Positions 1 through 50,153 of a stretch of DNA of 64,000 nt are shown one piece after another. The notes below the pieces were generated by a model. It had not been told where the DNA came from, ran no database searches, and saw nothing but the letters and a program-made list of their open reading frames with translations. Every line of letters begins with the position of its first letter. Within the stretch, counting starts at the first letter, position 1. The DNA comes from Bacilli bacterium (lineage in GTDB: Bacteria; Bacillota_I; Bacilli_A; RFN20; CAG-826), in NCBI GenBank assembly GCA_024408505.1, contig JAKSUZ010000002.1, positions 1,337-65,336 of the forward strand. The letters run 5' to 3'. Made by a program: the position numbers and the translations under genes.

Positions 1-763
1 AAGCTAAGAAACTATCGATTCCTCTAGCTACACTAGATATTTCTAATGCACTACCAATCGATAATATATTGAAGAAGTCTGGTGCATCGACACCAAAACC
101 AGATAAATCAAATCCTATATATCGCTTATTTTTGTATGCAGTAGTAGCGCTTTTTAACATATCCCTGATATAGAAGTTAAATGGTGCGCAAAAATTTGAA
201 GCCGTTTCGTCAAGAATTACGTTAGAAAAATAATCCTTGTCATAATCAAACCATGCTTTAGTTTTATATTTTTCGCCCTTAACCTCAGAATTATAGTAAC
301 GATAATATTCATCATCTGCATTATGCTCAATGCCAAGGTAGTACGATTCTTGTTCATTAGCAATCTTTAAATATGGAGAATCTTGTTCAAGATCCCAAGA
401 AGCAGTAATCTTATTCCCGGCAGCGATATTCCAATTATTAAAGTTAATTGGTTCAACTAGACCACTATCACTGATGTAATCAATTTTTACAGTACCTGAA
501 ATCTTAATACAATATTGAACAGTTGCCGTTCCTTGTTTGGAAAGTTGGAAAGGCAGCTCCGCATTTGTTTGTTCTTCTTCAGGAAATTGAGCCTCATGCA
601 TCTCTTCAAAAGTCTTAGCTAAATCATAAAAAGTATCAGCAGCTTTATAGCTAACACGATCTAATAAAGTGATATCTTTAACATTATTGCCGGTAGCCTT
701 ATCACAACTGGCTAATGTTACTGCGCATAACGCGAGTGGCATGAGTATTTTAATTTTATTCAT
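1..763 (-). CDS. Surface lipoprotein, cassette type A paralog (C-terminus lies outside the window)
   Basis: ATG at 763 with an AAGGAG RBS upstream. Reverse-strand translation starts MNKIKILMPLALCAVTLASCDKATGNN (signal peptide plus lipobox Cys). The frame stays open to the window edge. N-terminus parallels the 3425..4558 product. Confidence 0.7.
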   Translation of the reverse strand, partial: MNKIKILMPLALCAVTLASCDKATGNNVKDITLLDRVSYKAADTFYDLAKTFEEMHEAQFPEEEQTNAELPFQLSKQGTATVQYCIKISGTVKIDYISDSGLVEPINFNNWNIAAGNKITASWDLEQDSPYLKIANEQESYYLGIEHNADDEYYRYYNSEVKGEKYKTKAWFDYDKDYFSNVILDETASNFCAPFNFYIRDMLKSATTAYKNKRYIGFDLSGFGVDAPDFFNILSIGSALEISSVARGIDSFLA

Positions 764-793
764 AAACTTTTTCTCCTTAACTAACTTTATTTA

Positions 794-1930
794 TTACCAA
801 TAAATAGGGAAATATTCCTCAGGATTAAAGGAAGAGTCGATCTTACATCCATCCTTAACAACATTGTGGCTAATTTTACCATTAGCGTTGATGTTTGATA
901 AATCAAAAGGTGTAACAGCAGCATTTTCTTCGGGTTGTTCAAGAACCATTGAATAAGATACATTGCCATCTTTAATATCAAAAATAAACTCGTGTTGACG
1001 GATAAAATTATTTTCAAACGATACAAAGTAGTCAGCATTTAATGTACCAGAACTTTCAATAACTGGAACATTTCCTTCGTTAGATTCAATTTCAATTAAA
1101 TCCTCTAATTCTTTCATATCAAATTTATCGAATTTCAAATTAAATGATACCGCTGATTGATCTTCTTTATAGGTATAACGGCGAGAAAGAGCGGCATGGG
1201 TGAATTCATCAATTGCTTTAGCGTTTTCCTCATCGCTAAACCATAAGCCTGGTGTAATAAAGTTAATGTCATCAAAACCGGATAAATCAAAACTGATGCC
1301 TATAAGGTCAGGTCTGAATCGACCGGAATTTAAGGGCGATCTATATATTTTTCTCATGAAACAATTGCTATAAGCAACCTCATACATGACTAAATTTTCA
1401 AAACTTGCTCCGTAATATATCTCGGATTGAGCTTCATTTAACGCTTTGACATAATCATCTATAGCATATTTGATTTTGCCTAAAATAGGACTATTAATGT
1501 ACTTAAAATATCTTTTTGACTCGCCTTTTCCTTCTGATTTGATATAGGCACAAGTTTGACTATCGGCAATCTTAATGTAATCTTCATCTTTGTTCCATTC
1601 AACTGTGATTTTATCGGAAATGCTAAAGTCAGCATTAGGAACATTAATATTTAAGTCTCTTGTATGAATTTTAATTCCGCCAGTAATCTTTAGATTAACA
1701 TTGGTAGTGGAACTTCCGTTGCCAAATAAATCATAAAAATATTGGTCCTCATCTTCAACCTGAATTGTTTTTATTTGCTTCTCTCCAAAAGCTTTTATCA
1801 TTGGAGCGATGGTCACGCACTTATCGGTTTCTTTTTCGTAAGTAACGCGACTTAATCCTGCGTTACTACTGCAACTAGCTAATGTTGCTCCAAATAAAGC
1901 AAACGTGCTTAATAATTTTACTTTTTCCAT
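794..1930 (-). CDS. Surface lipoprotein, cassette type B paralog
   Basis: Track ORF is 794..2062. The likely start is the internal ATG at 1930, giving MEKVKLLSTFALFGATLASC (lipobox). Collinear with the 4584..5756 product: SRVxYEK, TIT(V/I)xWNxDEDYIKI, KxYFKYxxSPILGK, DLSGF, ADYFVxFENxFIRQHE. Confidence 0.8.
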   Translation of the reverse strand: MEKVKLLSTFALFGATLASCSSNAGLSRVTYEKETDKCVTIAPMIKAFGEKQIKTIQVEDEDQYFYDLFGNGSSTTNVNLKITGGIKIHTRDLNINVPNADFSISDKITVEWNKDEDYIKIADSQTCAYIKSEGKGESKRYFKYINSPILGKIKYAIDDYVKALNEAQSEIYYGASFENLVMYEVAYSNCFMRKIYRSPLNSGRFRPDLIGISFDLSGFDDINFITPGLWFSDEENAKAIDEFTHAALSRRYTYKEDQSAVSFNLKFDKFDMKELEDLIEIESNEGNVPVIESSGTLNADYFVSFENNFIRQHEFIFDIKDGNVSYSMVLEQPEENAAVTPFDLSNINANGKISHNVVKDGCKIDSSFNPEEYFPIYW

Positions 1931-1946
1931 AAATCTCTCCTTAATA

Positions 1947-3290
1947 TTAATATGTATAAATATTGTATGTCTGCGTTTTACTGGTGGTACCGTATGAAGA
2001 ATTTCCAGCATGCATATCGTATGGACTAGAATATGTTCGACTATATTTAATTTGTGAATCATTCTTTAAACGCCCTTGACTATCATAGCTGCATGACTTA
2101 TTGATAAGAGTTTTGGTCCAAGTCAAATAACTATAATTGTTATGAATAGAGGAGATAAAACCATAATTACTAACATTTCCTGGATAATATGGTTCAAGTT
2201 CTTCTTCGTTATATCTATATTCCGTTGTTACACTATTAAGCAACTTTTTAGGATCGTTTTTATAATACGATGATATCGTTTCACTTTCATAAATTTTATC
2301 ACTGATAGAGGATCCATAAATATCAGCACTATAAGCATATGTTTTAGAATTTATTAAACAATTGTACTTATCATAAGTATTATTCGTAACATAGGTAATA
2401 GAGGAATAATAGGAATAGGAAGAAGTATTAGAATTTTCTCCCCAAATAAGATATGGCTGTGGTTCATAAGGAACAGATCTATAAGTACTATCTATAACAC
2501 AAGTCTCAGAAACAATGTTATTGTTTTCATCGAATTCACGATTAATAGTTATATTTTGAACCGATGTGGCAATAGCACGCATTACTTTACTTCTTATATA
2601 TGTTTTAAATTCTTTCGAATCGCCAGAATAAATATATTGTTCAGTCATATAGTAAGAACTATCTTGGACATATGGATATGGAGTCGGATTATAACCATTA
2701 CTAAACACTCCACTAGAATAAATTGGATAGTCAGGATAAGCAGGCTCGTAATTTCTACCAAAAACATTTGTCTCTTTAAACACGAGTCGATTTAAATTAT
2801 CGTATGAATAATTTTCAACAGAATAGTTATTCACTCTAACATCAGCCGAACCCATAGTAAGCAAATTGTTCTTATGTAAAACTATGCGATGAGCCAATCT
2901 TCCATTCTTATCATAACGATTTGTATAACTAGTATCTTCTTCTCTAGTACCATAATTTATGATGAAACTAGATACGTTACCATTACTAGTCAATCCATTT
3001 TCAACAATACCTTTGCGCATTTCTACATTAGGAATATAAGTGGATTCAGCAGTAACACGATTATGACTATCGTATTCTCTAAGTGTAGCTCTCCTAGTAA
3101 CAACTACTGATGGTTTTAATTCGTTTGTTATATCGTAATATTCCCATACACCACCCATCGCATAGTTTTCGGTATACTTCATTTTGTATAAATCCGATGG
3201 ATCAACCTCATTTGGGTTAATTGTTGTTTTTGAACAAGCTGCCATAGAAAAAATAGCAAGGCCCGAGAAAAGAAGTAGTGCTTTTTTCAT
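1947..3290 (-). CDS. YD-repeat-containing lipoprotein, cassette type C paralog
   Basis: MKKALLLFSGLAIFSMAACS lipobox. Four YD/RHS-like motifs: EYDSHNRV, RYDKNGRL, YSYDNLNRL, SYDSQGRL. Paralog of 5778..7001. Confidence 0.8.
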   Translation of the reverse strand: MKKALLLFSGLAIFSMAACSKTTINPNEVDPSDLYKMKYTENYAMGGVWEYYDITNELKPSVVVTRRATLREYDSHNRVTAESTYIPNVEMRKGIVENGLTSNGNVSSFIINYGTREEDTSYTNRYDKNGRLAHRIVLHKNNLLTMGSADVRVNNYSVENYSYDNLNRLVFKETNVFGRNYEPAYPDYPIYSSGVFSNGYNPTPYPYVQDSSYYMTEQYIYSGDSKEFKTYIRSKVMRAIATSVQNITINREFDENNNIVSETCVIDSTYRSVPYEPQPYLIWGENSNTSSYSYYSSITYVTNNTYDKYNCLINSKTYAYSADIYGSSISDKIYESETISSYYKNDPKKLLNSVTTEYRYNEEELEPYYPGNVSNYGFISSIHNNYSYLTWTKTLINKSCSYDSQGRLKNDSQIKYSRTYSSPYDMHAGNSSYGTTSKTQTYNIYTY

Positions 3291-3364
3291 AAAAGTCTCC
3301 TTTTTATTTAGTCAACTTAACAATAACATATGATATCTATTTTGGCAATAAATGCATTTTAGAT

Positions 3365-3398
3365 ATAAAAAATAGGAAGCAATCACTTACTTCCTATT
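3365..3398 (-). terminator. Rho-independent terminator closing the upstream lipoprotein cassette
   Basis: On the minus strand: AATAGGAAG-loop-CTTCCTATT (9-bp stem) followed by TTTTTTAT, just downstream of the stop at 3425. Confidence 0.7.
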
Positions 3399-3424
3399 CT
3401 TATTGATTTTCGTTAAGAACTTAC

Positions 3425-4558
3425 TTAGTCTGCAGAAACTTCGCTATATTCACCGGGTTTAAAATCATCGGGTGTACATTCTTTAGTTACTTCCTCATTT
3501 CCGTGTAAGCAGAAATCAAAATCAGTAACATCGAGAATAATCGGAGTCTCACTGATAATTCCAGTTAAATTAAGATCAGTAATATCTAAATCAATCTCTT
3601 CTTGTTTAACGAAATAGTCAGCAAAAGCGGCAAAACAATCAAAATCTACTTTACCAGATGGACGAATACCGGTTCTTAATTCAATGATTGAATCATAGTC
3701 ACTTAAATTGACACCTTTTAAATCAACAGCGATAGAAGCGGTCTTATCAAAATCATCGGTAGCAAACTTCATTGAAAGTTCATTAAATGGATTTACAACT
3801 AAGAAAGCGTCAACCTGAGCGGTAAGTTCTTTGTCTTCGGCCCAAGAAGCAGGGGAGAAAATATTACTCTCGTAGCGTCCCCATCCATAATTATTAAACC
3901 AATTGTTTGAAAAGCCCGACAAATCAAATCCAATGCATTCGTAGTTAGGGTGAATACTTTGCCTAAACATATGCGGTAATCTAATTGATGAATTCGTTAG
4001 CGATTCCCTTAAAACGATATTGCCGAAATCGATGGATTCGCTTCCGCTCCAGTAATCACCATCTTGTACTTTATATTTGCCGTCTTGAGGAGAAGTGAAA
4101 TATCTATATAGATAATAGTTTCCATCTATTTCCTCAACTCCTACATAGTATGAGGTGCGATTATTTGTAACTTTAATGTAGCGTTTTGCGATGTCCCAAG
4201 AAATGGTAATGGTATCAGTCAAATTTAAATTCCAATTATTCAAATTAACGGATGGATAACTATAATCGCCAAGAAAAGAATAAGCCTTAATCTTTTTAGC
4301 GGATGCATTTAAACAATAACGAACAGTCGCAGTTCCTTCATTAAAAATCTGAAAATCGGTAGCGACACCATTTTGTTCTGGGGGAAATTGCTTTGTGTGC
4401 ATTGCTTTAAAGACGCTTGATAGACTAGTAAAAGTTGGGGCAGACTTATAATTTACGCGATTTAATTTTGGAATTGTAAAATTTACCTTGCTCGCGCCAC
4501 AACTGGATAAGAGTGCTGCGCAGAGAGCTAATGGAACTAAACATTTAATTTTCTTCAT
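3425..4558 (-). CDS. Surface lipoprotein, cassette type A
   Basis: MKKIKCLVPLALCAALLSSC lipobox. Distantly related to type B (TITISWD..RYIKV, YFTSPQDGKYK, GFDLSGF, ADYFVKQEEI). Confidence 0.8.
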   Translation of the reverse strand: MKKIKCLVPLALCAALLSSCGASKVNFTIPKLNRVNYKSAPTFTSLSSVFKAMHTKQFPPEQNGVATDFQIFNEGTATVRYCLNASAKKIKAYSFLGDYSYPSVNLNNWNLNLTDTITISWDIAKRYIKVTNNRTSYYVGVEEIDGNYYLYRYFTSPQDGKYKVQDGDYWSGSESIDFGNIVLRESLTNSSIRLPHMFRQSIHPNYECIGFDLSGFSNNWFNNYGWGRYESNIFSPASWAEDKELTAQVDAFLVVNPFNELSMKFATDDFDKTASIAVDLKGVNLSDYDSIIELRTGIRPSGKVDFDCFAAFADYFVKQEEIDLDITDLNLTGIISETPIILDVTDFDFCLHGNEEVTKECTPDDFKPGEYSEVSAD

Positions 4559-4583
4559 ATTTTTTTCTCCTTAAAACTCATTA

Positions 4584-5756
4584 TTAGTAATTTAATGGAA
4601 GATATTCAGCCGGATCAAAATTGTCAACTGAACATTGTCCTTTAATCACATCTTGACTAACTTGAATATTTGCATTGAGATTTCTAACAGTTATAACATC
4701 ATCAACAACTGTCTTGTTTGCTAATTCAGATTCATGACTATATGTAACAAGGAAAAGATTTAAGTCTTTTGTATTTAAAATAATTTCATGTTGACGAATA
4801 AAATCATTTTCAAATGCCACAAAGTAATCAGCGGTGATGGTTCCAAAACCTTCTAAAGTAGTATCTGTACCTTCAGGAATAAGTTCTTTTAATTTTGATG
4901 CATCATATTGATTAAATTTTAGATTAAGAGCTGCAGCAGAACCATCAGTTTTTTGACTATAATTGTGTTCAAAAGATGGTTCCGTAATGCCATCAATTGT
5001 AGTAATAACATTGCTGTTTTCTAAGATATTTCCAGGTGATAAGAAGTTATCCTCTAAAAATCCAGAAAGATCTAATCCGATGCCATCAAAGCCAGTATCA
5101 ATCACAGCGCGACCGGAGTTATCATTACCATATAATTTTTCAGCAAAATATCCGTTGTTATATGCTACTTCCATCATGACTAGATTTTTAAAACTTAAAC
5201 CTAATTCAATGACATCACCATCTTCATTCATAGAAAGAAGATATGGCTCTTCCTCATGAGTAGGATTAAGGCAGATCTTAACTTTGCCTAAAATTGGGCT
5301 TTCGAAATATTTAAAATATTTTTTATCTTCGCCCGTGCCTTCCGATTTAATGTAGGCGTGACTAACATTGTCGGAAATTTTGATATAATCTTCATCTTCA
5401 TTCCAAGAAATAGTGATTGTATCAGATAAATCGAAATTGATATCTGGTATATCAATCGAACGACTTCCACCACTGGCAAATTCAAATCCACCAGTTACTT
5501 TAAAATTAATGTTTGTTTTTACAGTACCGGACGAGAAGAGTTTAAAGTAACCTTGTGGACAAGTTTCTTCTAGTTCAGATTCAACTATATCAAGTTGTTT
5601 ATCTTTAAAGGCTTTAATAGTAGGCGCTATTTCAGCGCATTTACCAACGCTCTTTTCGTAAGATACTCTACTTAATCTACCGCCGTTACTGTTGCAACTA
5701 ACTAATGCTAAAGAAAAGAAAGCAAGCGTACTAATAAGTTTAATGTTTTTGTTCAT
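4584..5756 (-). CDS. Surface lipoprotein, cassette type B
   Basis: MNKNIKLISTLAFFSLALVSC lipobox. Paralog of 794..1930. Confidence 0.8.
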   Translation of the reverse strand: MNKNIKLISTLAFFSLALVSCNSNGGRLSRVSYEKSVGKCAEIAPTIKAFKDKQLDIVESELEETCPQGYFKLFSSGTVKTNINFKVTGGFEFASGGSRSIDIPDINFDLSDTITISWNEDEDYIKISDNVSHAYIKSEGTGEDKKYFKYFESPILGKVKICLNPTHEEEPYLLSMNEDGDVIELGLSFKNLVMMEVAYNNGYFAEKLYGNDNSGRAVIDTGFDGIGLDLSGFLEDNFLSPGNILENSNVITTIDGITEPSFEHNYSQKTDGSAAALNLKFNQYDASKLKELIPEGTDTTLEGFGTITADYFVAFENDFIRQHEIILNTKDLNLFLVTYSHESELANKTVVDDVITVRNLNANIQVSQDVIKGQCSVDNFDPAEYLPLNY

Positions 5757-5777
5757 ATATTTTTCTCCTTTTAATTA

Positions 5778-7001
5778 TTAATAAGCATATAAAGAGATTT
5801 CTTCAATCCCAGTGTGAGCATAAAAATCGCCATCTTCACTAAAATTGCCATCTAGAGCGACTAATGTGTCAATTGTTAATCTACCTTCGCTATCGTAATT
5901 ACATGAACGATAGGTAACAGTTGCTTCATTGACAAATTTAGAATAGGAATCGCCAATAAATATAACTGGCTCATCTTCAACTGATTCAGAATAAGACATA
6001 ATTGTGCAGCGATCAATTTTATTCGGATTATGTTTATAATAAGATGCTGTCATTTCCATAGCCAAAACATTAGAATAAATCGTGCTTCCTCCAAAAGAAC
6101 GAGTCGCATAAGTTTCTGCACCGACCATACAATGATAGTCATCATAAGTATAATTTGAAACGTAAGTTACTTCGGTTTTATACGTTTGCATTTCTCCATC
6201 ATAATTATCAGGAAGTATTCCTCCTCCTTGTTCTGTTTCAGTTGTATAAATGGCTGTTTCTTTGATAATATCGTTGTTCTTAAAATCACGAATTATATTA
6301 AGTGTTCGAATTAAAGAATCAACTTCTTCTCCTTCTTCTCGCATAACTGGAGTGTCTTCGAATATTTCTTCAGTTAATGAATAGGTTTTATATGTGCGTG
6401 AATTTCCTTCGTAGGTATATTCTTCAGTTGAAACTGCATAAGGGATATCGATATAAGAACTACCGATAATGTCTCTACTACCATATATCGGAATGCGCGA
6501 GGCACCATCACCCAAATACTCAGCTTTAATTAAGCGATTTTGATTATCGTATTCATATTTTTCAATATTGGCTGTTACCTTGCGATAATAATCCCATGAT
6601 GAGCGGTAATTTTCTTCTTTAACGATAAATCGATAAATTAAATTTCCCCTACCATCGTACTTATTTGTGTAACTAGTAATGGTGGTCTGCATATTTTTGA
6701 CATAAGAATTATTCATATATCTAAATGCACTTTTATATTCTTCTTCCATCACAACATGATTATGACTATCGTATCTACGATAAACATAAGTCGGGGTATT
6801 GCTTGTAGCAACCGGCACATCCGCTATAGAACCGTCAACTAAATAAACTTGCCTATAAGGGTCAGGTCCAATATATTGATATATTTGGCGCTGAGTTATT
6901 TTCGCCTTATATAAACTAGACGGATCAACAGTATTAGCCGTATTAGCACAAGCAGCGCATGAAAATACTGCAAGGGCTGATAAAAGAAATACTTTTTTCA
7001 T
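5778..7001 (-). CDS. YD-repeat-containing lipoprotein, cassette type C
   Basis: MKKVFLLSALAVFSCAAC lipobox. YD-like motifs: RYDSHNHV, KYDGRGNL, YEYDNQNRL, NYDSEGRL. Confidence 0.8.
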   Translation of the reverse strand: MKKVFLLSALAVFSCAACANTANTVDPSSLYKAKITQRQIYQYIGPDPYRQVYLVDGSIADVPVATSNTPTYVYRRYDSHNHVVMEEEYKSAFRYMNNSYVKNMQTTITSYTNKYDGRGNLIYRFIVKEENYRSSWDYYRKVTANIEKYEYDNQNRLIKAEYLGDGASRIPIYGSRDIIGSSYIDIPYAVSTEEYTYEGNSRTYKTYSLTEEIFEDTPVMREEGEEVDSLIRTLNIIRDFKNNDIIKETAIYTTETEQGGGILPDNYDGEMQTYKTEVTYVSNYTYDDYHCMVGAETYATRSFGGSTIYSNVLAMEMTASYYKHNPNKIDRCTIMSYSESVEDEPVIFIGDSYSKFVNEATVTYRSCNYDSEGRLTIDTLVALDGNFSEDGDFYAHTGIEEISLYAY

Positions 7002-7086
7002 AAAAGCCTCCTTGTCTAATCAAACTTATTATAACATACGAAAATAATCTTCAACAATAAAGGCAATGTACTAAATTAATCGATAA

Positions 7087-8265
7087 TTAATATGAACCAA
7101 TGTTTTCTTCGTAATACTTGGCTAAGATATAATTTTCTCTCGGAATGTATGTTCCGCCATCTTTTTTAATATCATGAATGAGCTCTCTATTTCTTGCTCG
7201 GATATTATGAATAGTACCATCGCCACCAGTTGGAGCGCCGATCATAATTTGTGGATTAATTCTTGGTACATCCTTGTCTATCTCTTTTACGCCTACAACA
7301 AAATTATTGATGGTAGCATTAAATTCTTTACTTAATTCTCCACCTATTGAACTAATGGCGTATTCGTCCCCTTGAGCACCGGCCGGACCAAACCACCAAG
7401 CAATGCAATCAGTAAGAAAAGCTGATGTATTATTAAATTGATAACCGATTCTAAAATTATCACTATAACAATTGCTTAGTTCAGTGAAACTAGAAATTTC
7501 AAAACCGACCGATTCATCATAATTATATTTTTTACAATCACCATTATGTAGTGGATGAACATTTTTCAAAATGTTTGTGCCACCGCTGCTTAATACACCA
7601 TGAGTGACGTGACCAATACGGATATTAGTCGCACTATTATCACTACCTTCTAGCTTTAATCCATACGATGTAGCGCTATCATTACAAATAATACTCATAT
7701 CTTGAATATCAGCATCTGAAGAACCACCACCATTAACGCCTGGCGCAATCCTTAAGCCAATCTCAACGCCTTTCATTGAAACATTTTGAACTCTAGTCTC
7801 TCTTCCACCCGCAATTTCAATTCCCGCCGCTTTTCCGCTTCCATCAATAATTCCGCCAGTTAAAGAGTAAACACTACCAGGTATAGTAACTTCATTAATG
7901 CGATCAAGTCCACCCAGAGAAACCATATATAAATATTCATCTTGCCATTTTTCTAGGACTCCGCCTCTTTTTACTTGATAATTATCACTCGCTTTTAAAA
8001 TTGCATAATTTGATAATTGTAAATCGACAGATTTAGTAGGATCACCAGGCGTTAAGATTTGATGATCTAATAAATATGTTCCATCGCGAAAATATAGTGT
8101 GCGATTAGGATTATTATTAATTAATTCTTGAATCTTATCGCTACAATCACTATGTCCTGAGGTATCAACATAACTAGCAACATCGATAATGCCACTACTT
8201 TTGTTATTACATCCAATAAGAGGCGCTACTAATGTTAGTAAACATAAAAATTTTAATTTACTCAT
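7087..8265 (-). CDS. Lipoprotein with a probable right-handed beta-helix (pectate-lyase-superfamily-like) domain
   Basis: MSKLKFLCLLTLVAPLIGCN lipobox. The N-terminal pattern DKIQELINNNPNRTLYFRDGTYLL resembles the start of pectate_lyase_3-type beta-helix proteins. The body is repetitive and rich in Gly/Asn/Ser. Confidence 0.55.
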   Translation of the reverse strand: MSKLKFLCLLTLVAPLIGCNNKSSGIIDVASYVDTSGHSDCSDKIQELINNNPNRTLYFRDGTYLLDHQILTPGDPTKSVDLQLSNYAILKASDNYQVKRGGVLEKWQDEYLYMVSLGGLDRINEVTIPGSVYSLTGGIIDGSGKAAGIEIAGGRETRVQNVSMKGVEIGLRIAPGVNGGGSSDADIQDMSIICNDSATSYGLKLEGSDNSATNIRIGHVTHGVLSSGGTNILKNVHPLHNGDCKKYNYDESVGFEISSFTELSNCYSDNFRIGYQFNNTSAFLTDCIAWWFGPAGAQGDEYAISSIGGELSKEFNATINNFVVGVKEIDKDVPRINPQIMIGAPTGGDGTIHNIRARNRELIHDIKKDGGTYIPRENYILAKYYEENIGSY

Positions 8266-8841: not shown

Positions 8842-9882
8842 CTATTTCTTTTTGCCTTTTTTAACATTAGGCAAAGCTTCTAAATTAGCGTTTTTAATAA
8901 ATAAATCGTAATCAGAAACGATTCTGTTTTCTTGAATGATGCGATATTTTTCAAATTCCGATAAAGCAAATTTTATTGCCACTTCGCGTGAAACCTTCCC
9001 TGGATTATCTAATATTGCTCTACCATTAAACTGAAGTAATAAATTTAATCTTTTGATGTAATCATCCATTGTCAGCGGAACATGCTTCTCGGCCATTTCT
9101 TCGCCGAAATCTAAATACATTTCAACCAAACGGGAAAGCGAAGTTAACTCCTTCTTTTCTAAATAATTTTTTGCTATCGTAACATCGGTTTTATGAATTC
9201 TACCCCTAGGAGCATTATTCCAAGTTTTCAATCCCATATTTTCTTTTTTTGAATCGGCGCGATTTATGATAATTTCAGGTGCAGTGTTTCCTGAAACAGC
9301 ATAATGTAATTTGTTCTGAACCGTTTTAAAAAACTCCAATGTTTTATTTGAACTATTGTCATAATCAACGGCAGTAGAAAAGAGATCGGTCACTTTTTGA
9401 TATAATCTCCTTTCGCTTAATCTAATTAATCGTATTTCCTCAAGCAATTCATCATAATAATCTTTAGTAAGATAAGCACCATTGGCTAATCGAATATTAT
9501 CTAAAGCATAACCCTTAATTGTATAATTCTTGAGAACATTAATTGCCCAAATTCTAAATTCAGTAGCTTTAGATGAGTTGACTCTAAAGCCAACCGCAAT
9601 AATCATTTCAAGCGAATAAAATTTAATATCCCTTTCTACTTCTCTATCTCCTTCGTTTTGAACTATTCGAAAATTTCGAAAGGTTGCCTTCTTATTTAAT
9701 TCATTTGAAGAATATATTTCATTAATATGGTAATTGATGGTATTAACACCAGTGTCAAAAAGATCCGCTATCGACTTTTGGGTAAGCCATAAATTATCAT
9801 CATCAATCACTGAATTAATCTTGTTTTGCTTAGATTGATATGTAAATATTAACGATTCAACTAAAGCTATTTTGTTTCCCAT
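8842..9882 (-). CDS. RhuM-family (virulence-associated, Fic/DOC-context) protein
   Basis: Pattern LWLTQKSIADLF...TINYHINEIY...FRIVQxEGxREVxRxIxFYSLEMIIAVGFRVNSxKATEFRIWA is typical of the RhuM family. Start is uncertain: ATG at 9882, or TTG at 9927 as in the track. Confidence 0.6.
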   Translation of the reverse strand: MGNKIALVESLIFTYQSKQNKINSVIDDDNLWLTQKSIADLFDTGVNTINYHINEIYSSNELNKKATFRNFRIVQNEGDREVERDIKFYSLEMIIAVGFRVNSSKATEFRIWAINVLKNYTIKGYALDNIRLANGAYLTKDYYDELLEEIRLIRLSERRLYQKVTDLFSTAVDYDNSSNKTLEFFKTVQNKLHYAVSGNTAPEIIINRADSKKENMGLKTWNNAPRGRIHKTDVTIAKNYLEKKELTSLSRLVEMYLDFGEEMAEKHVPLTMDDYIKRLNLLLQFNGRAILDNPGKVSREVAIKFALSEFEKYRIIQENRIVSDYDLFIKNANLEALPNVKKGKKK

Positions 9883-9954
9883 ATTTTTAACTATATATAG
9901 AGTATCACTATATATATCAACTTTCAATATAGCTGAAAGTTTGTATTCTTTGCC

Positions 9955-49562: not shown

Positions 49563-49904
49563 TTACAATAGTTTAATGCTTTTATAAGCATTGTTTTTGT
49601 CGTTTGGATGCGGTTGAACTGCTATGACAGTTATTTCTTGTCTATTAGGTCCATACATCCAAAAAAGACGTCTAGCAGATGGAGTCTTATTTTCAATATA
49701 TGACTCGAATATCCTTACACCACACTCATGACTTAACACCTCAATTTCATGACTATTTAACCCTGGATGTAGCGGATTGCTACTAAGTAGATATAGTGCT
49801 TTACCAATTTTCTTACGTAACAAAATATCAGCTTTTCCATTTTTCTTGTTTAGGTCTATCCAAAACTTTTCCATTTTTGGAGTCATTAAAATTTTAAAAG
49901 TCAT
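49563..49904 (-). CDS. RelE/ParE-superfamily toxin (probable)
   Basis: 113 aa, 3 nt downstream of an AbrB-type antitoxin gene. The pattern L..NP.HPGL..H....GVRIFESYI....RRLFW.Y.....ITVIAVQPHP is like the RelE/ParE fold. Confidence 0.55.
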   Translation of the reverse strand: MTFKILMTPKMEKFWIDLNKKNGKADILLRKKIGKALYLLSSNPLHPGLNSHEIEVLSHECGVRIFESYIENKTPSARRLFWMYGPNRQEITVIAVQPHPNDKNNAYKSIKLL

Positions 49905-49907
49905 TAA

Positions 49908-50153
49908 TTATTTATATTCTGAAAGATCTATCGGTTTTGAAACTTTACCATCATTGAAGTCTTTTACTGATTGTTTAATCATCTTAAAGGTATTTTCAGA
50001 AATTTCATAAGGATTGATTAAAGCACGTGGCGAAAGAACAATAGTACCATTTTTATGTTCGGTTACAGCATAATAGCGGCAACTAGCACGACGCAAAGTT
50101 AATCTATTTTTTGAATCAACTTTGGCATTATAGCTTCTTAAAACAGCTTCCAT
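49908..50153 (-). CDS. AbrB/MazE/SpoVT-type antitoxin
   Basis: AKVDSKNRLTL is the swapped-hairpin DNA-binding motif. 81 aa. Confidence 0.65.
   Translation of the reverse strand: MEAVLRSYNAKVDSKNRLTLRRASCRYYAVTEHKNGTIVLSPRALINPYEISENTFKMIKQSVKDFNDGKVSKPIDLSEYK

Follow-up and report, generated by a model that had tools for sequence, protein, structure and literature searches.

The window analysed here is a 64,000-nucleotide (nt) stretch of the genome of a Bacilli bacterium (genome G000, contig C12, coordinates 1337–65336; assembly of 1.23 Mb in 53 contigs with a GC content of 0.34), and its first 7001 positions carry two successive copies of a three-gene lipoprotein operon, referred to below as cassettes. 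Six minus-strand open reading frames (ORFs) form two collinear units, C-B-A followed by C'-B'-A' (Table 1), and we regard it as nearly certain, from comparison of the genes and of their signal peptides, that they arose by the tandem duplication, long ago, of an operon that carried its own promoter and that encodes lipoproteins. The products are interpreted, with a probability of roughly 0.6, as a lineage-specific surface lipoprotein complex that was anciently duplicated and may function in binding or adhesion.

Two diverged copies of one operon

Collinear paralogy of all three genes was confirmed using BLASTP, with 31% amino acid (aa) sequence identity between C and C' (E 2e-36), 44% between B and B' (E 6e-104) and 37–38% between A and A', in agreement with the 30–45% that had been estimated by eye in an earlier note proposing the duplication. 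The further proposal that A and B are remote paralogs of each other also held, with 26% identity over their full length (E 8e-25) and alignment of the named blocks DTITISW, Y..SP..GK, GFDLSGF and ADYFV. At the DNA level, residual direct repeats at a spacing of ~3.8 kb were found over all three genes, in collinear order and only as patches of 69–78% identity.

As the copies are too diverged for an assembler to have confused them as repeats, an assembly artefact can be excluded. The array was also reproduced at 100% identity in an independent assembly, Logan contig L029 (run SRR17543911; 10,489 nt), which corresponds to C12:880–11368 and has the gene content RhuM-apt-lipoprotein-C-B-A-C'-B'-A'. 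A strain variant of cassette 1 with 97.1% nt identity was present in L017 (run SRR17543913), and its C protein (P0007) is 96% identical to C.

Lipoprotein status was judged by pattern alone: a signal peptide with a basic n-region, followed by a hydrophobic core and, at its end, the lipobox [LVI..][ASTG][GAS]C. Signal peptides of this kind were found on all six cassette proteins (LASC, LASC, MAAC, LSSC, LVSC and SCAAC, with FAAC in the strain variant), which therefore have the features of bacterial lipoproteins that are substrates of Lgt and LspA.

A ribosome-binding site (RBS), AAGGAG, is located 5–8 nt upstream of each of the six genes. Within a unit the genes are separated by only 16–30 nt, and a gap of 134 nt lies between A and C'. 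This gap includes the terminator that the earlier note had placed between the units, a 15-bp hairpin (3401–3368) followed by a U-tract with a folding energy of -16.9 kcal/mol (z -4.97), which was equalled by only 1 of 200 shuffled sequences. The regions upstream of C and C' can still be aligned, with the common sequence ATATGTTAT...AAGTTGA...AGGAG.CTTTTATGAAAAAAG, indicating that the duplicated unit of ~3.8 kb included the promoter. At the level of sequence, both copies were shown to be intact and separately transcribable.

Table 1. Genes and predicted expression signals at the cassette locus (window coordinates)
Feature	Coordinates	Strand	Description
C, cassette 1 first gene	5778..7001	-	407 aa lipoprotein, signal peptide ...AVFSCAAC
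B, cassette 1 second gene	4584..5756	-	390 aa lipoprotein, LALVSC, B clade of A/B family
A, cassette 1 third gene	3425..4558	-	377 aa lipoprotein, LLSSC, A clade of A/B family
C', cassette 2 first gene	1947..3290	-	447 aa lipoprotein, FSMAAC, paralog of C
B', cassette 2 second gene	794..1930	-	378 aa lipoprotein, ATLASC
A', cassette 2 third gene	1..763 (starts at 763, crosses window edge)	-	
Predicted promoter and RBS, cassette 1	7020..7058	-	extended -10 TGtTATAAT at 7036-7028; RBS AAGGAGG at ~7013-7007; ATG at 7001
Predicted promoter and RBS, cassette 2	3296..3348	-	TTGCCA, 17-nt spacer, TG-extended TATTGT (3348-3320); AAGGAG; ATG at 3290
Predicted intrinsic terminator ending cassette 1	3365..3401	-	15-bp stem, then UUUUUU
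Adjacent lipoprotein gene outside duplicated unit	7087..8265	-	392 aa, APLIGC

The A' gene is complete in the contig (386 aa; C12:939–2099, equivalent to window -397..763), with its final 132 codons outside the window (C12:939–1336). A longer version of B', a 422-aa ORF under translation table 11 extending to position 2062, was rejected as an upstream extension that overlaps C' and lacks an RBS; the true start, MEKVKLL, is preceded by one.

Relatives, age and host

The A/B family was found to comprise 41 proteins when 1.84 billion cluster representatives were searched exhaustively with a profile. This approach was required, as a word-indexed homologue search with B had retrieved B alone. Members are 310–450 aa long, and a lipobox is present in every representative that retains its N-terminus. 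Across 301 genomes from the taxonomic family of the host, the A/B protein family is confined to one of 48 genera, where it occurs in four of the seven genomes. The two relatives that carry an organism name are from "MAG: Bacilli bacterium" (MAG, metagenome-assembled genome), recovered from horse faeces.

In a maximum-likelihood tree, the A clade (support 100/100) and the B clade (100/99) each include members from several organisms. In phylogenetic terms, A and B were shown to be ancient, separate paralog lineages that have been retained as an ordered pair. Tandem A/B pairs are the usual arrangement, and were seen in contig C50 of G000, contig C3 of G004 and loci L021 and L023. In L021, a B'-like C-terminus is followed by an A'-like gene with a product 49% identical to A'.

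With seven members, the A/B family is the second-largest lipoprotein paralog family of G000. A third A/B locus in this genome (L026; G000:C50:56575–65731) consists of a tandem lipoprotein pair of 388 and 412 aa, separated by 122 nt from an upstream ABC operon of the sugar type encoding two Peripla_BP_4 lipoproteins, an ABC ATPase and a BPD_transp_2 permease. A lone short member of 335 aa is encoded at C53:49981–50988. In another congeneric genome, three short-type A/B genes lie in tandem (G003:C46:781–3854), the first of them broken by a TGA codon.

C-type proteins were found only in C-B-A cassettes. A single full cassette with the same gene order and spacing is present in G006 (a congeneric MAG, Horse_feces347) at a different genomic site, where it follows an [FeFe]-hydrogenase gene. 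Only two C-type genes are present in the G000 assembly, and the further cassettes that had been envisaged beyond the window edge were not found there. A faint C-like match in G008 proved to be an unrelated lipoprotein of 862 aa.

Neither A, B, C nor their paralogs produced a Pfam hit at E <=0.1, and no match was found in NCBIfam or among PDB sequences. PADLOC returned no match and PHROGs only two marginal ones (E 0.001–0.006) to entries of unknown function, hence the cassette proteins were assigned neither to anti-phage defence nor to phage proteins. A search of the literature on RF39, lipoproteins and peptidoglycan found nothing relevant.

The duplication is old, as had been proposed, because synonymous sites are saturated between the paralogs (dS 1.4–2.1). 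The G000 paralogs resemble one another marginally more than they resemble the G006 proteins. In the A tree, A and A' are grouped (94/87) and the group contains an A' orthologue of another organism, whereas the B tree weakly suggests the reverse order of the duplication and the split from G006. From the paralog distances and the two trees, the duplication is placed close to the divergence from the G006 lineage, probably shortly after it, and it preceded at least one subsequent speciation.

Mur ligases and FtsW/RodA homologues were not detected in the G000 assembly, which is 87% complete, although both searches were positive in walled control genomes. As the chance loss of all Mur ligases together with FtsW/RodA is unlikely at this level of completeness, a wall-less host, as the earlier note had supposed, is plausible. 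Lipobox signal peptides were predicted on ~102 of the ~1,100 ORFs of at least 100 aa, with many paralog families represented. A lipoprotein load spread over many families is a pattern known from Mollicutes. If the cassette products are lipid-anchored in a wall-less cell, they would be expected on the outer face of its sole membrane.

The neighbourhood of the cassettes is variable, as they are flanked by insertion sequence (IS) remnants and, at the opposite end, by a RhuM-family gene. At 70 nt past A', contig C12 runs out in IS3-like remnants, where C12:1–870 includes C-terminal fragments of two IS3-family-like transposases (93–341 and 683–868, plus strand). L029 stops at C12:880, consistent with a repeat-induced assembly break. 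The RhuM-family gene is full-length (window 8842–9927; Pfam E 1e-101) and is located two genes upstream of the cassettes. Genes of this family are often found in genomic islands. The lipoprotein encoded between this gene and the cassettes (7087–8265), which had been labelled a beta-helix protein, has no counterpart upstream of the G006 cassette and matched no Pfam, NCBIfam, PHROG or PADLOC family and no PDB sequence.

Other sites in these genomes were also found to differ in lipoprotein gene content. In G000 (C12:109060–113109), the [FeFe]-hydrogenase gene (84% conserved) is followed by a gene for a different lipoprotein, of 730 aa, in the position where G006 has C-B-A. This protein is unrelated to the cassette and ends in APAFCI, like a 20-member lipoprotein family of G000, and lipoprotein genes seem to be exchanged particularly often at the site downstream of the hydrogenase gene. 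In G004, the slot between genes of the HIT family and a yhaM-like type holds an A/B-like lipoprotein pair (L014, 5232–7786); the same slot in G000 (window 49563–50153; C12:50899–51489) holds two overlapping minus-strand ORFs of 113 and 81 aa that are toxin-antitoxin-like. A two-gene lipoprotein set, made up of one member of the 20-member APAFCI-ending family and one of a 6-member family, occurs twice in a row at C12:93186–98379.

Structure, evolution and possible role

An AlphaFold2 model of B, built from a 10-sequence alignment, had a pLDDT of 79.8 and a pTM of 0.80, and consists mainly of long antiparallel strands with one N-terminal helix. Foldseek returned no fold match to this model (TM <=0.27 in PDB and <=0.16 in BFVD), and the low-TM matches, to porins and to maturation proteins of ssRNA phages, were considered to be noise. 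C is predicted to be all-beta and is rich in Tyr, Thr and Asn, and its model (from four sequences) has ~18 strands arranged in hairpins with a pLDDT of 58. The fold matches of the C model were to outer-membrane barrels with TM <0.5. A membrane barrel was rejected for C, given the weak model and the polar or charged strands (Tyr, Thr, Asn).

C had been described as a YD-repeat lipoprotein, and five YD-like motifs (RRYDSHNHV, NKYDGRGNL, YEYDNQNRL, YTYDDYHCM and CNYDSEGRL) are indeed present, the first three spaced 36–38 residues apart. However, the label was overstated, as the Pfam RHS_repeat profile, with a cut-off of 22 bits, found nothing in C (P0001) at E <=10 and gave only sub-threshold scores for P0004 (E 0.41, 11.6 bits) and P0008 (E 2.6, 9 bits), such that no cassette protein has a significant match to PF05593. 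An internal-repeat test of C segments using hhalign was not convincing (best E 0.0024 among 28 comparisons), and no RHS, Tc or teneurin structure was among the top 50 Foldseek matches of the C model, although at pLDDT 58 this is a weak test of the fold. While "YD-like motifs" is a fair description for C, "YD-repeat protein" is not established.

The motif spacing, which resembles the 38-residue RHS repeat of Pfam, the faint RHS_repeat matches and the all-beta hairpin model would each accord with C being a miniature RHS/YD toxin, in which a cut-down YD shell holds or presents a payload and A and B are helpers or immunity proteins. This is highly improbable, as neither an RHS core nor a C-terminal toxin domain or plug was found in the cassette proteins using Pfam and NCBIfam, and ~18 strands are too few to close a YD cocoon. 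The low profile scores, the absence of such a score for C itself, the outcome of the fold search and the weak internal-repeat statistics point in the same direction.

The cassette proteins evolve rapidly, with 25–37% identity between G000 and G006 versus 79–96% for core proteins on the fetched contigs. The diversifying selection that the earlier note had read from the pattern was not shown. The dN/dS ratio between paralogs is uninformative due to synonymous saturation, and omega for the sole strain pair (G000 and L017) ranged from 0.28 to 1.0. The value of ~1.0, for C, comes from just 4 synonymous and 15 non-synonymous changes, and C does not differ significantly from A+B (Fisher p 0.065). Between the strains, substitutions are clustered (in B, for example, the first 400 nt have 31 and the other 800 nt have 10), and five in-frame indels occur in 3.3 kb. 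This variation is compatible with relaxed constraint, with recombination or with diversifying selection acting locally, of which the last is not demonstrated.

These data bear on whether the two cassettes provide different versions of the cell surface, subject to switching or to selection, as a means of escaping host immunity or phage. The speed of divergence relative to core genes, the omega of ~1 for C together with the clustered substitutions and in-frame indels, the patchy occurrence of cassettes at differing sites within the genus, and their location near IS remnants and a RhuM gene would all suit such antigenic variation. However, no simple sequence repeat (SSR) tracts or invertible repeats were found at the cassettes, where TRF identified only 2-copy matches of 8–11 nt and inverted repeats were at chance level, and no recombinase gene was found within 1–10 kb. 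The locus therefore has none of the switching devices of phase-variable lipoproteins of the vsa, vlp or vsp type. Both units also have intact promoters that look constitutive, A and B have an omega of ~0.29, and the excess in C involves 19 substitutions in one strain pair. Antigenic variation is thus considered distinctly unlikely.

A different role, nutrient capture, is suggested by gene neighbourhoods. Here, A/B pairs, whether accompanied by C or not, would bind a substrate (sugar, nucleoside or lipid) for an uptake system, and the duplication would widen the substrate range. The C50 pair lies directly after its ABC transporter operon, a single A/B copy in G006 adjoins a gene for a Bmp/PnrA-like binding lipoprotein, and a short A/B member in L025 is two genes from a BPD_transp_2 permease gene. 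In addition, Foldseek matched the B model weakly (probability 0.35–0.47) to LprG and EPDR1, both LolA-like lipid binders, but with TM <=0.27. None of the three C-B-A cassettes (two in G000 and one in G006) adjoins a transporter, and the A/B pair of G004 has a HIT gene and a yhaM-like gene as its two neighbours. Furthermore, reduced genomes are dense in ABC transporter and lipoprotein genes, hence adjacency may be due to chance. Nutrient capture is unlikely on this balance, but is the main rival to a surface complex for binding or adhesion.

The tandem duplication itself, which took in all three genes together with the promoter and the RBSs, was shown, and it happened in the distant past in a small-genome, apparently wall-less Bacilli genus of the horse gut. 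In the surface-complex reading, A and B, the relatives of which are nearly always encoded in ordered tandem pairs, would act as a non-redundant and probably heterodimeric pair, and C, which is found only in front of A/B pairs, may be a third, accessory subunit forming an open sheet of beta-hairpins. The chances that A and B, possibly with C, form a physical complex are judged to be about even from gene order. The complex would meet host, phage or environmental ligands at the cell surface, and a binding or adhesin-type role for the cassette proteins is put forward tentatively. Fast evolution would reflect relaxed and/or episodic diversifying pressure, and the second cassette would be a diverged variant rather than added dosage.

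Several observations weigh against this reading. Some distant A/B members adjoin CUT2-type ABC transporter genes, which would fit nutrient capture, and the strain-pair omega values of 0.28 for A and 0.29 for B indicate purifying rather than positive selection. The C model is of low confidence (pLDDT 58), and family and fold searches of the cassette proteins revealed no ligand, catalytic motif or known domain.

A bolder form of the surface-complex reading is a long shot. A/B would represent a previously unseen fold and, together with the C sheet, would form a new heterotrimeric, lipid-anchored surface machine of a wall-less gut Bacilli clade. If so, the heterotrimer might be a receptor or gate of long beta-strands that does on one membrane what outer-membrane beta-proteins do in diderms, and the tandem copies would be specificity variants.

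Comparison with known systems

Tandem growth of surface lipoprotein genes is a familiar theme in wall-less, host-associated bacteria, and the event itself is unsurprising. What is new is the unit, a three-gene operon that combines a paralogous pair with a hairpin-repeat protein, and the fact that both protein families (A/B and C) are true orphans. The predicted fold of A/B, modelled with confidence, is likewise unmatched in PDB and BFVD. For uncultured "Mollicutes-like" Bacilli of the gut, the cassette represents a fast-evolving surface module, a possible strain marker, a candidate factor in interaction with host or phage, and a target for structure determination.

The LolA/LprG-like lipid binders (PDB 3mh8, LprG; PDB 6e7o, EPDR1) share a lipoprotein context with B and, porins aside, are the sole PDB entries to which Foldseek gave its model some probability. 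However, TM scores were 0.14–0.27 with a root-mean-square deviation above 16 A, and there is no sequence similarity to B. The best TM, 0.15 when normalised to the query and 0.24–0.27 when normalised to the target, falls well short of the >0.5 expected for a shared fold.

RHS/YD proteins (PF05593) resemble C, C' and the G006 orthologue in having motifs of the YxYDxxxRL type and a predicted run of beta-hairpins. The cassette C proteins differ in being ~400 aa and lipid-anchored, with profile scores below threshold, no RHS core or toxin, and no RHS structure retrieved in the fold search.

The Vsa, Vlp, Vsp and Vpma families of Mollicutes switch by site-specific inversion or by slippage of repeat tracts, and their proteins include tandem repeats. 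Like the cassette proteins, they are lineage-restricted, fast-evolving, clustered lipoprotein paralogs of wall-less, host-associated bacteria. Unlike them, the cassettes have no switching features, and the repeated unit is an operon encoding three distinct proteins.

The Mycoplasma immunoglobulin-binding/protease pairs (MIB-MIP) occur as arrays of tandem two-gene units, with physical contact between the partners of each unit (PMC11213901). No DUF31/peptidase or MIB domain was found in the six cassette proteins using Pfam, such that they are not MIB-MIP proteins, and the C-B-A unit is made up of three genes, including two that are mutually paralogous. In both cases, however, multi-gene surface units are arranged head-to-tail at one locus of a bacterium that is wall-less or, for the cassettes, plausibly so, each with its own promoter and with terminators, and the copies are old and diverged. 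By analogy of organisation, and with no homology implied, MIB-MIP is the closest known counterpart of the C-B-A cassettes.

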